Virus record (IMG/VR): IMGVR_UViG_2879770953_000003
Source of the DNA: a virus
Taxonomy: Duplodnaviria; Heunggongvirae; Uroviricota; Caudoviricetes
Reading direction: 5' to 3' (one strand)
DNA: 33,113 nt
Position numbers: made by a program. This document shows, in pieces, positions 9,001 through 12,000 of this stretch. How positions within the stretch are numbered: the stretch's first letter is position 1; each line of letters begins with the position of its first letter.

Positions 9001-12000
9001 ATTCGGGTGTTCTGAAGTGGAAAGCATAAATGACCGAACGCATAGAATTTGTTTTGCCTTACCCGCCAACGGTGAACACCTACTGGCGACGTCGTGGCAG
9101 CACATATTTTGTATCAAAAGCCGGTGAGCGTTATCGCCGTGATGTGGCGCTAATTGTTCGCCAGCAGCGACTGAAATTAAACCTGTCCGGAAGGCTGGCG
9201 ATAAAGATTATTGCAGAGCCACCGGATAAGCGCCGTCGTGACCTGGACAATATCCTGAAGGCACCGCTGGATGCGCTGACGCATGCTGGACTACTTATAG
9301 ACGACGAGCAGTTTGATGAAATCAATATTGTGCGCGGTCAGCTCGTTCCTGGTGGGCGGCTGGGGATAAAAATCACAGAACTGGGGTGCGCATGAATAAC
9401 CAGTATTTACAGTTTGTGCGTGAGCAGCTCATTATCGCCACCGCTGATTTGAGTGGGGCAACAAAAGGTCAGCTTGAAGCCTGGCAAGAGAATGCCATGT
9501 TCGATACAGGGCGTTACAGGCGTAAAAAAATCCGGTACCGCGATGAAGTGACTGGAAAAATGATAACGCGGGATAATCCACCAATCCCGGGAAAGCAATC
9601 GCTGGCGAAGGGGACGTCAATTCCTCTGGTCAGTCCGGTTGAGTTTTCGACATCATCGTGGCGGCGGGCTGTTCTGTCTCTTGAAGAACATCATAAAGCC
9701 TGGTTGTTGTGGTGTTACAGCGGGAGTATTTGTTGGGAATATCAGATCGCGATAACACAGTGGGCGTGGAATGAATTTAATGCTCAATCCGGTACCAGAA
9801 AAATTGCAGGGAAAACGCAGGAACGCCTGAAAAAATTAATCTGGCTGGCGGCGCAGGCAGTAAAAGCAGAACTTTTTGGTGGGGAAGGTTATGAATACCA
9901 GGTTGGTGGGGAAGGTTATGAATATCAGGAGCTGGCATTACTGGCGGGAGTAACAACCAAAAACTGGTCCAAAACATTTACTGGTCACTGGGTTGTAATG
10001 AAACACATTTTTCACCGACTGGATAGTGAGGCTTTATTGTTTGTAATGAGAACACGTTCAAAAAAAAGACGGCATTTTCAAAGCAAAGTGTTGCAAAAGT
10101 AGATTGAAAGGCATATATTCATGCAAATCTGATATTTTGCCGATTTTGTACGTGATGGCAAAAGCAAACAAAACCCGCCCACAAGCGGGTTTTTTGTGCC
10201 ACTTATCTCGGATAGACATGGTGAATGCGCTGGTGGAGGAGATAAGGGTGATTTTTGAATGCTTGCAACATTGATTTCGTAACGTTATTATCCTGCGCTC
10301 GGCCCTTTAGCTCAGTGGTGAGAGCGAGCGACTCATAATCGCCAGGTCGCTGGTTCAAATCCAGCAAGGGCCACCAACCGCCACTAGCTCATCAGGAAAG
10401 AGCGTCAACCCTTTAAGTTGAGTGTGCGAGGTTCGAGTCCCCGGTGGCGGTCCAGTGCCGACTTGGCTCAGTAGGTAGAGCAACTGACTTGTAATCAGTA
10501 GGTCACCAGTTCGATTCCGGTAGTCGGCACCATATGCGGGCATCGTATAATGGCTATTACCTCAGCCTTCCAAGCTGATGATGCGGGTTCGATTCCCGCT
10601 GCCCGCTCCAGTTAGAGTCTTTCAGTCTGCGATGATGGGAAATCCCGGAGTGACTGAAAGACGTTTAAGTTATGAATGATCGCTTTTTTTTGCAAAATTG
10701 CTGTGCAGAAATACTAACCTTCGGGCAGGCGATCATTCATAAGCACTCTGCTTTTATTCCGATTAACTGTGAGTGGTTTGTTGGATAGAGTGCTTTCCTT
10801 ACTGTATATATCGTTTCGCCCGCTTTTGCGGTTTTTTCTTTTCAAATCCCTTTCATTTCTCAGTGTAAAACTACGCCATCCGTTATTTGCGGAGGTGAGG
10901 CTATGAAATCCATGGACAAAATTTCAACGGGCATTGCCTACGGCACCTCCGCAGGCAGTGCTGGCTACTGGTTTTTACAGTGGCTTGATCAGGTCAGTCC
11001 GTCACAGTGGGCTGCGATTGGTGTACTGGGGAGTCTGGTTCTGGGCTTCCTGACTTATCTGACAAATCTGTACTTCAAAATCAGAGAAGACAAGCGTAAG
11101 GCTGCGAGAGGTGAATAATGTCGCCATCATTACGGTAAGCGCCCCATCAGCGACGTCTTGTGAAAATTGTCCTGTCTGGCAACAATCGCGCCCATCTATA
11201 TTGATGGACACGAACGATGAATTCCCAGACAACAAAAGATATTCCCTGCTTCCGTTCTTATTTGCCTGATGCCCTGCGTTTAAGATTTGAAGATAAACTG
11301 ACCATCCGGGCCATCGCTCAGCGTCTGGGTCTCAGTCATTCCACAATACATACGCTTTTTCAGCGATTTCTTGCATCCGGTATCGCATGGCCATTGCCCG
11401 ATTCAGTTTCATTCGCTCAACTTGACGCCATCCTTTATGCCAACAGAAAGAAGGAATTAACAGAGCCTCAAATCAGAGAAGGCTCATGGCGAAAAGAACG
11501 GCGAACCAGCTATAGCCGTGAATTTAAGGTCCGTCTGGCTAAGCAGGCGTTACAGCCTGGGGCTGTTGTTGCCCGGATCGCCAGAGAACACGATATCAAT
11601 AATAACCTGCTGTTTAAATGGAAAAGCCAGTACGAGGACGGCTTACTGAGCGATGATGACATACAGGAATGCATGCCTGTCCCGGTGGCACTGACTGATA
11701 CGCCGGAGCCGACCAGACCAGTTACAAATCCCTTCTGGCGTAACAAGCATGATGAGCGCCCTGAGGGGGCTCCCGGAAACGTCCCACGGTGCGAGCTGCA
11801 TCTTAAATCAGGTGTGGTAAAACTGTTTGACCCTCTCACTCCGGAACTGTTACGGGCGCTAATCCGCGAAATGAAAGGGGGTATCCGATGATAACGCTGC
11901 CGACCGGTACCAAAATCTGGATCATCGCTGGCATCACAGATATGCGTTGTGGCTTCAATGGCCTGGCTTCGAAGGTGCAGAACACGCTGAAAGATGACCC

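Follow-up and report, generated by a model that had tools for sequence, protein, structure and literature searches.

The window analyzed here is a 33,113-nucleotide (nt) stretch of a Shigella prophage (IMG/VR virus record IMGVR_UViG_2879770953_000003), in which four transfer RNA (tRNA) genes lie on the + strand at positions 10301-10610, as called by both ARAGORN and Rfam. The first of them starts 199 nt 3' of the end of an intact gene for the late antiterminator Q (9386..10102, + strand, 238 amino acids; Pfam PF06323 Phage_antiter_Q, E value of 4.2e-88). In order, the array consists of tRNA 1, a tRNA-Ile2 with anticodon CAU that is presumably lysidine modified and corresponds to ileZ (10301..10376); tRNA 2, a noncanonical Lys-type tRNA with anticodon UUU, C33, U73, and a C1:G72 pair that derives from phage argN (10378..10454); tRNA 3, a tRNA-Thr(UGU) copied from host thrU with an A9G change (10457..10532); and tRNA 4, a tRNA-Gly(UCC) copied from host glyT (10536..10610). 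Their scores against the Rfam model RF00005, which has a gathering score of 29 bits, are 72.5, 44.4, 72.5, and 64.9 bits, and each gene encodes its own CCA. We consider it reasonably probable that the array is a self-promoted prophage tRNA operon in the Q-to-lysis slot, where many lambdoid phages carry such an operon, with one structurally maintained but noncanonical Lys-type tRNA.

The first-pass annotation of this DNA had described a tightly packed set of four tRNA genes downstream of Q, led by an Ile2-like gene, with anticodons that all read A-ending codons and with a C in place of U33 in the second gene, and this description is accurate. Its spacers of 1 to 3 nt (1, 2, and 3 nt in order) are likewise real, but such spacing is ordinary in Escherichia coli tRNA operons, as in K-12 valT-lysW (2 nt) and valZ-lysY (3 nt). 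What had escaped notice is that tRNAs 3 and 4 are copies of host thrU and glyT and that tRNA 2 is an argN gene with a switched anticodon; the accompanying proposal that the array supplies tRNAs for ipaH is only partly supported, as discussed below.

The operon is preceded by a candidate sigma-70 promoter of its own (TTGCAA-17 nt-TATTAT; 10263..10291, + strand), which was found by scanning and ends 9 nt before tRNA 1. Six upstream lineages with diverged spacers and flanks retain the TTG of its -35 element, the -10 element TATTAT, and the 17-nt spacing, and the site is also present in phage 933W, which carries Shiga toxin 2 (Stx2). Directly 3' of the promoter is a GC-rich discriminator, CCTGCGC, that would resemble those of stable-RNA promoters.

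Three of the four genes have readily traced origins, each being an unremarkable version of a known tRNA that serves a rare codon. tRNA 1 is identical to the ileZ gene of Stx2 phages over all 76 positions and is 89% identical to K-12 ileX. It has the CAU anticodon, it is ileX-like rather than Met-like, and its acceptor stem, GGCCCUU/AAGGGCC, includes the C4:G69 and C5:G68 pairs that are used by TilS; the NCBI Prokaryotic Genome Annotation Pipeline (PGAP) also names it tRNA-Ile. tRNA 4 is identical to K-12 glyT (75/75), and tRNA 3 matches K-12 thrU at 75 of 76 positions, A9G being the sole difference. Among 91 copies of the array in IMG/VR, the major allele of tRNA 3 is exactly thrU, with position 9 occupied by G in 8 copies and by C in 3. 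The glyT copies include a compensatory allele (C6:G67 to U6:A67) in 8 of the 91 (IMG/VR loci within L006-L125), and this allele and the recurring changes at thrU position 9 together suggest that the captured host tRNAs are still under selection.

The host operon thrU-tyrU-glyT-thrT-tufB has tyrU between thrU and glyT. The TAT spacer between the Thr and Gly genes of the array consists of the first trailer base of thrU and the last two leader bases of glyT, and for this reason the pair fits a capture from the host operon followed by loss of tyrU. The array differs from its host counterpart in lacking tyrU together with 130 nt of spacers, as well as thrT and tufB, and in its phage context. On these sequence comparisons, the array would be composed of two modules, a phage-lineage pair (ileZ and the argN derivative) and a captured host pair (thrU and glyT).

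tRNA 2 folds as a cloverleaf with stems of 7, 4, 5, and 5 bp and, at 44.4 bits, lies above the RF00005 threshold, as expected of a canonical elongator. All of the conserved tertiary nucleotides (U8, A14, G18G19, T54-Psi55-C56, a purine at position 37, and the 3' CCA) are present and can be read directly from CCGCCACUAGCUCAUCAGGAAAGAGC...GGUUCGAGUCC...UCCA. The energy of the cloverleaf is -25.5 kcal/mol, at the level of the minimum free energy (MFE); we judged the fold by direct energy evaluation, as single-sequence MFE prediction is uninformative here (even ileZ and thrU fail to fold into the cloverleaf). The sole stem mismatch, A51.C63, is common to the argN of phage F349, and a comparable mismatch occurs in host thrU.

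The departure from a canonical elongator is in the anticodon arm, UCAAC/CCUUUAA/GUUGA, in which a stem of 5 bp closes a loop of 7 nt (C32, C33, U34-U36, A37, and A38), so that the U-turn nucleotide U33 is replaced by C. We regard C33 as real rather than as an artifact of folding because ARAGORN and Infernal agree on the register of the loop and a shifted stem would not pair. The ARAGORN check that the first-pass annotation had proposed returned four tRNAs and no other fold that would give tRNA 2 a canonical loop, and shifted anticodons (UUA, which would make an ochre suppressor, or CUU) were rejected because the stems they need do not pair. In a survey of 67 distinct tRNA sequences from 1.2 Mb of related loci, U33 is absent only from the tRNA 2 family, in which 14 of 14 alleles have C33, and is present in the other 53 of 53. 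With respect to tRNA-Lys(UUU), tRNA 2 has the UUU anticodon and the U36-A37-A38 motif for N6-threonylcarbamoyladenosine (t6A), but it carries U73 in place of the discriminator A73 and does not descend from lysT.

Its nearest relatives are instead phage tRNAs for arginine. The argN gene (Arg, UCG) of Stx2 phage F349 shares 84% identity with tRNA 2, and that of 933W shares 81%; a diverged copy of host lysT was rejected as the source, tRNA 2 being no closer to lysT (59% identity) than to valT. By these alignments, tRNA 2 is a derivative of Stx-phage argN in which the anticodon switched from UCG to UUU together with the change of U33 to C. When substitutions are polarized with 933W as the outgroup, nine fall on the tRNA 2 branch, and none of the four in stems breaks a pair: U7C turns a U:G into a C:G pair in the acceptor stem, G43A turns a U:G into a U:A pair in the anticodon stem, and G30A with C40U exchanges G:C for A:U in the same stem as a compensatory double change. 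Three of the nine (U33C, C35U, and G36U) lie in the 7-nt anticodon loop (Poisson P = 0.05) and create the new loop and anticodon, and the remaining two occupy unpaired positions in the D loop (G17A) and the variable loop (C47U).

Pairing was further counted in an 11-sequence alignment of the tRNA 2/argN family with the cloverleaf imposed. In this alignment, 95.7% of cells are paired, and three pairs (7:66, 27:43, and 30:40) have changes on both sides, compared with zero when partners are slid by 1 to 3 columns; the covariation score was reached by none of 500 shuffles. Polymorphism points in the same direction. Across 27 loci with homologous flanks, tRNAs 1, 2, and 4 have no segregating sites and the flanks have 14 in 275 nt, a density that would predict about 3.9 in tRNA 2 (Poisson P = 0.02). 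Over the 91 arrays, aligned with MAFFT, tRNA 2 has 17 polymorphic columns and the other three genes have 19, 14, and 11, a comparison qualified by the 22 of the 77 nt in tRNA 2 that were fixed by the search pattern. Because its stems have been kept or improved by compensatory change, we conclude from these sequence data that the tRNA fold of tRNA 2 has been preserved since the remodeling of its anticodon arm.

Several observations weigh against a maintained, functional tRNA 2 and lend themselves to another explanation, namely, that it is a dead passenger: a copy of argN inactivated by its loop mutations (U33C and the anticodon changes) and kept inside a useful polycistron only because clean RNase P processing of the neighboring tRNAs still depends on its acceptor/T-arm fold. 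tRNA 2 scores far below its neighbors (44 versus 65 to 72 bits), is missing the U33 that nearly all tRNAs share, and is without the A73 that E. coli tRNA-Lys carries. Bacterial elongator tRNAs virtually never have C33 (PMC5041475; PMC13276492), and the E. coli TsaBCDE enzymes could not place t6A on a U33C tRNA (PMC8887486). Degenerate alleles also circulate, including a 1-nt deletion in the D stem in PPompW phages, a U8C allele in 14 to 16 copies, three singleton variants that break stem pairs, and internal deletions with loss of the anticodon arm in locus L092 and in Stx2c phage PV98-693 (L135, 401-466). In these last two, ileZ and argO are intact beside the deleted second gene, and both are clear pseudogene versions. 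The gene is left out by some annotators (H1, H2), and AAA is a codon that needs no supplement.

We consider this explanation possible but somewhat doubtful, since inactivation does not readily account for the pattern of substitution. All four stem changes on the branch keep or improve pairing, the compensatory double change falls in the anticodon stem, which is not required for RNase P processing, the three loop changes yield a coherent sense anticodon with a UAA t6A motif, and tRNA 2 is no more polymorphic than the three bona fide tRNAs. The compensatory changes cannot, however, be ordered relative to U33C, and selection on structure could predate the disabling of the loop. A search of IMG/VR for intermediate alleles that could order the loop changes (U33 with UUU, or a Lys-type stem with UCG) found none; its only match, L131, was rejected as an unrelated AT-rich phage tRNA-Lys.

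One of the closest known systems is the ileZ-argN-argO cluster of Stx2 phages (933W, Sakai, and 2851/F349), which lies between Q and stx2 and shares with the array its post-Q position, its promoter, and an identical ileZ. The argN of that cluster is orthologous to tRNA 2 (81 to 84% identity) and agrees with it in the C1:G72 pair, in U73, and in the T arm, but has anticodon UCG and U33 where tRNA 2 has UUU and C33, and the cluster has argO (UCU) where the array has the thrU and glyT copies. The array, with ileZ present, the argN anticodon changed, and argO absent, is thus not an ileZ-argN-argO cluster in the strict sense. An intermediate architecture occurs in the PPompW and Evi phages, whose clusters consist of ileZ, the same UUU/C33 gene, and argO; this order implies that the switched gene arose inside a Stx-type cluster and that Thr-Gly later replaced argO, or the reverse.

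The array is widespread in E. coli. At a query coverage of at least 80% and mostly at 99% identity, it is found in 602 of 5,426 complete E. coli genomes (~11%), where the PGAP names for the genes are Ile, Lys, Thr, and Gly, and also in three isolated coliphages. Among 185,579 species representatives, the exact signature of the tRNA 2 T arm and acceptor 3' side is restricted to E. coli and Shigella flexneri. The sequences of the array are therefore not new, and it is a tRNA operon of a known kind, with existing annotation in hundreds of genomes. Where its second gene came from and what state it is in nonetheless seem to be undescribed, in that a limited literature search on ileZ, argN, and argO gave nothing relevant.

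Codon supply was proposed earlier for tRNAs in the Q-to-lysis slot (PMC3636060), and the first-pass annotation had extended this idea to AT-rich cargo such as ipaH. We measured codon enrichment against a reference of 40 K-12 genes (14,425 codons). Codons AUA, ACA, and GGA have odds ratios of 7.9, 4.4, and 2.7 in the early genes, 2.6, 2.1, and 2.3 in the late genes, 17.9, 2.4 (P = 0.06), and 6.8 in ipaH, and 12.3, 10.2, and 7.3 in the methyltransferase gene, with Fisher P values of 1e-3 to 1e-8 in most gene groups. For these three codons, the expectation is borne out, in ipaH (apart from the marginal ACA value) as in the methyltransferase gene. It does not hold for the fourth: AAA makes up 0.65 to 0.82 of Lys codons, compared with 0.74 in the host, and thus is not enriched. 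AAA is, moreover, the Lys codon that the host uses most, and a single host operon shows five lys genes. Insertion sequence (IS) genes show the same AUA/ACA/GGA bias, and an enrichment common to all horizontally acquired genes provides no specific evidence of selection for supply; extra, unchanged copies of thrU and glyT also give a dosage effect only. Both points count against reading the operon as one selected for its tRNA supply.

That the array exists to translate AT-rich prophage cargo, and ipaH in particular, is improbable. The enrichment of AUA, GGA, and ACA in ipaH and the methyltransferase gene would agree with such a role, as would a constitutive-looking promoter that permits expression in the lysogen, but the distribution of the genes does not. 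Of the 5,426 E. coli genomes, just 10 contain ipaH, so that at least 592 carry the array without it, and no phage record with ipaH was found; a linkage between the array and ipaH was therefore rejected. The rarest codons of ipaH, and those with the largest deficit in the host, are AGA and AGG (27.5 versus 1.7 per thousand), and the array has no Arg tRNA to serve them. The first two genes, furthermore, sit before stx in Stx phages and beside an IS in PPompW phages, which indicates that the module moves independently of cargo. Ile2, Thr, and Gly could still reasonably serve in codon supply, adding copies of low-copy host tRNAs for AUA (Ile2), ACA [Thr(UGU)], and GGA/GGG [Gly(UCC)], but such supply does not account for tRNA 2, whose benefit would have to be of another kind.

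One such benefit could be protection from nucleases that cut tRNAs. Toprim nucleases have lately been shown to deplete particular tRNAs. The AriB nuclease of PARIS targets the tRNAs for Lys (UUU), Thr (UGU), and Asn (GUU), recognizing U36-A-A-U-C|A41 together with U16, and U39A or U16C impairs its cleavage (PMC12409363). PrrC cuts tRNA-Lys 3' of nucleotide 33 (PMC2275089, PMC2610378) and is reported to need ct6A37 (PMC12409363), and phage tRNA-Lys variants rescue phages from both PrrC and PARIS (PMC11555353). The P2 OLD nuclease, in turn, restricts lambdoid phages, and the Thr tRNA of phage HK446 rescued phages from OLD (bioRxiv 10.64898/2026.07.10.737580).

Against this background, the array as a whole could be mainly a counterdefense device, as three of its four anticodons belong to published nuclease target sets (PMC12409363; bioRxiv 10.64898/2026.07.10.737580; post hoc hypergeometric P = 0.013), P2 OLD acts on lambdoid phages and is countered by the HK446 Thr tRNA, and HK446 and others have Asn(GUU) and Thr(UGU) genes in the same slot. 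tRNA 2 itself lacks the AriB site, reading U36-A-A-G-U-U41 with C16 where the host tRNA has U39, C40, A41, and U16; the validated escape tRNAs of T5 and HK446 are likewise without U39, and a C33 tRNA should be devoid of the t6A-type modification that PrrC needs. We nevertheless think it unlikely that counterdefense is the main function of the array. The Thr and Gly copies match those of the host fully or almost fully and keep the AriB site UAAUCA, overexpressed E. coli thrU gave phages no rescue from OLD (bioRxiv 10.64898/2026.07.10.737580), and Ile2 is not a known nuclease target. The proven T5 and HK446 escape tRNAs have retained the canonical loop with U33 and differ in the stem instead, and G39, U40, and U41 of tRNA 2 are for the most part a legacy of the argN backbone, not new changes. 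The combination of a target anticodon with a changed recognition site is found in tRNA 2 but not in tRNA 3 or tRNA 4.

Two groups of phage tRNAs offer close comparisons. The tRNA-Lys(UUU) of T5, an escape tRNA for PARIS and PrrC, shares with tRNA 2 the UUU anticodon and residues at positions 39 to 41 and 16 that depart from the host AriB site, but its loop is the canonical CUUUUAA, it has A73, and it has been validated by experiment, whereas tRNA 2 has C33, U73, and an Arg lineage. The Asn-Thr pair of HK446, SfI, Sf6, ST64T, and phage 21 (PMC3636060 for the last four) occupies the same slot between Q/PR' and the holin gene and shares Thr(UGU) with the array. The Thr genes of the HK446 type are, however, diverged phage versions, with 26 differences from thrU and other residues at 39 to 41, compared with the single A9G change in the Thr gene of the array. 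In HK446 (L005), the Asn(GUU) and Thr(UGU) genes lie at 35097-35252, between PR' and the holin gene, and the two depart from their host counterparts at positions 39 to 41; these are two of the three targets of PARIS AriB.

A broader form of the counterdefense idea is that the C33 UUU tRNA is a disarmed spare lysine tRNA of temperate coliphages, one that survives nucleases while keeping AAA/AAG decoding, and that the post-Q tRNA slot of lambdoid phages, whether filled by Asn and Thr or by Lys, Thr, and Gly, is a counterdefense locus directed at Toprim and PrrC tRNases, not a codon patch. It is suggested by the argN-derived body, which lacks the AriB site, and by C33, which alters the scissile junction of PrrC and would prevent formation of t6A37. 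We offer this proposal as a speculation, with less confidence than even the counterdefense role of the array itself.

Whether tRNA 2 could decode at all bears on each of these possibilities. Functional, natural C33 tRNAs with U36-A37-A38 exist in the form of the initiators of multicellular eukaryotes (PMC8887486; PMC5041475), which resemble tRNA 2 in these respects. These initiators, however, act in the P site and are modified by t6A enzymes that accept C33, whereas tRNA 2 is of the elongator type and the enzymes of its host reject C33. The rejection of U33C by TsaBCDE predicts weak decoding of AAA. Most likely, tRNA 2 is transcribed and processed and is charged by lysyl-tRNA synthetase (LysRS), the last of these predicted because the UUU anticodon constitutes the main set of LysRS identity elements, and we would expect it to be a poor decoder of AAA/AAG that probably lacks t6A37. 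The structurally maintained tRNA 2 might accordingly be a spare that resists anticodon nucleases, or it might be a passenger.

The surrounding sequence provides a plausible route to expression. A candidate late promoter PR' (TTGCAA-17-TATATT; 10091-10119, + strand), detected by a promoter scan, overlaps the end and stop codon of the Q gene, and a terminator scan identified a hairpin with a T run, the candidate intrinsic terminator tR', at 10170-10198 (+ strand). Between them, positions 10122-10195 give weak, full-length, subthreshold Rfam matches to the Salmonella prophage small RNAs (sRNAs) isrK (22.7 bits) and isrJ (24.5 bits). By likeness to the PR'-6S-tR' region of lambda, 10091-10200 probably comprises PR', a short (~75-nt) terminated RNA, and tR'. 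The tRNA genes of HK446 likewise start ~200 nt after its annotated PR'. Because the array has its own conserved promoter 9 nt upstream of tRNA 1, the tRNA operon would probably be made in the lysogen, and after induction, Q-modified polymerase initiating at PR' would also read through it. RNase P would then cut the polycistron at the 5' end of each tRNA, and exonucleases would remove the trailers of 1 to 3 nt as far as the encoded CCA.

A pair of long, stable hairpins (10612-10668 and 10670-10742, + strand; RNA folds with z scores of -3.1 and -3.5) directly follows the array, ahead of the holin gene; as modeled, they may be processing or termination elements. A weak terminator-like sequence, GCCCGC-TTTT-GCGG-TTTTTT, lies at 10818-10837, before the holin gene. 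This gene, the first of the late genes, encodes a class II holin (10903..11118, + strand; Pfam PF04971, E value of 1.4e-35), behind which the lysis cassette is broken by IS66-family transposase genes (11217-15123). The IS66-family element is itself split by a 1,264-bp IS copy (13069-14332) that is 99.7% identical to a copy at 3226-4489. The surrounding prophage matches phages of the phiP27 type; it is defective, being decayed and riddled with IS, yet the tRNA array is intact. A tRNA-Asn gene and a tRNA-Ser(CGA) gene adjoin a truncated phage integrase gene (1425-1500, - strand; 2492-2581, + strand; and 2634-3251, - strand), a region that probably marks where the prophage ends, at an attachment site of the serU type. 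Above-threshold Rfam matches at 7198-7373, 31931-32110, and 32867-33070 correspond to the sok antitoxin (CssrC), CssrB, and IS009, of which CssrB, Shigella chromosomal sRNA B, lies directly beside ipaH.

For the biology of temperate coliphages, tRNA 2 represents a natural case in which a phage tRNA has changed its amino acid family, from Arg (UCG) to a Lys type (UUU), with its stems repaired by compensatory changes. If it does not work in translation, it would be a well-dated tRNA pseudogene sheltered inside an operon. If it does, it would be a natural test of the limits of the U-turn rule and would provide a temperate-phage counterpart to the escape tRNAs that T5 deploys against PARIS and PrrC.

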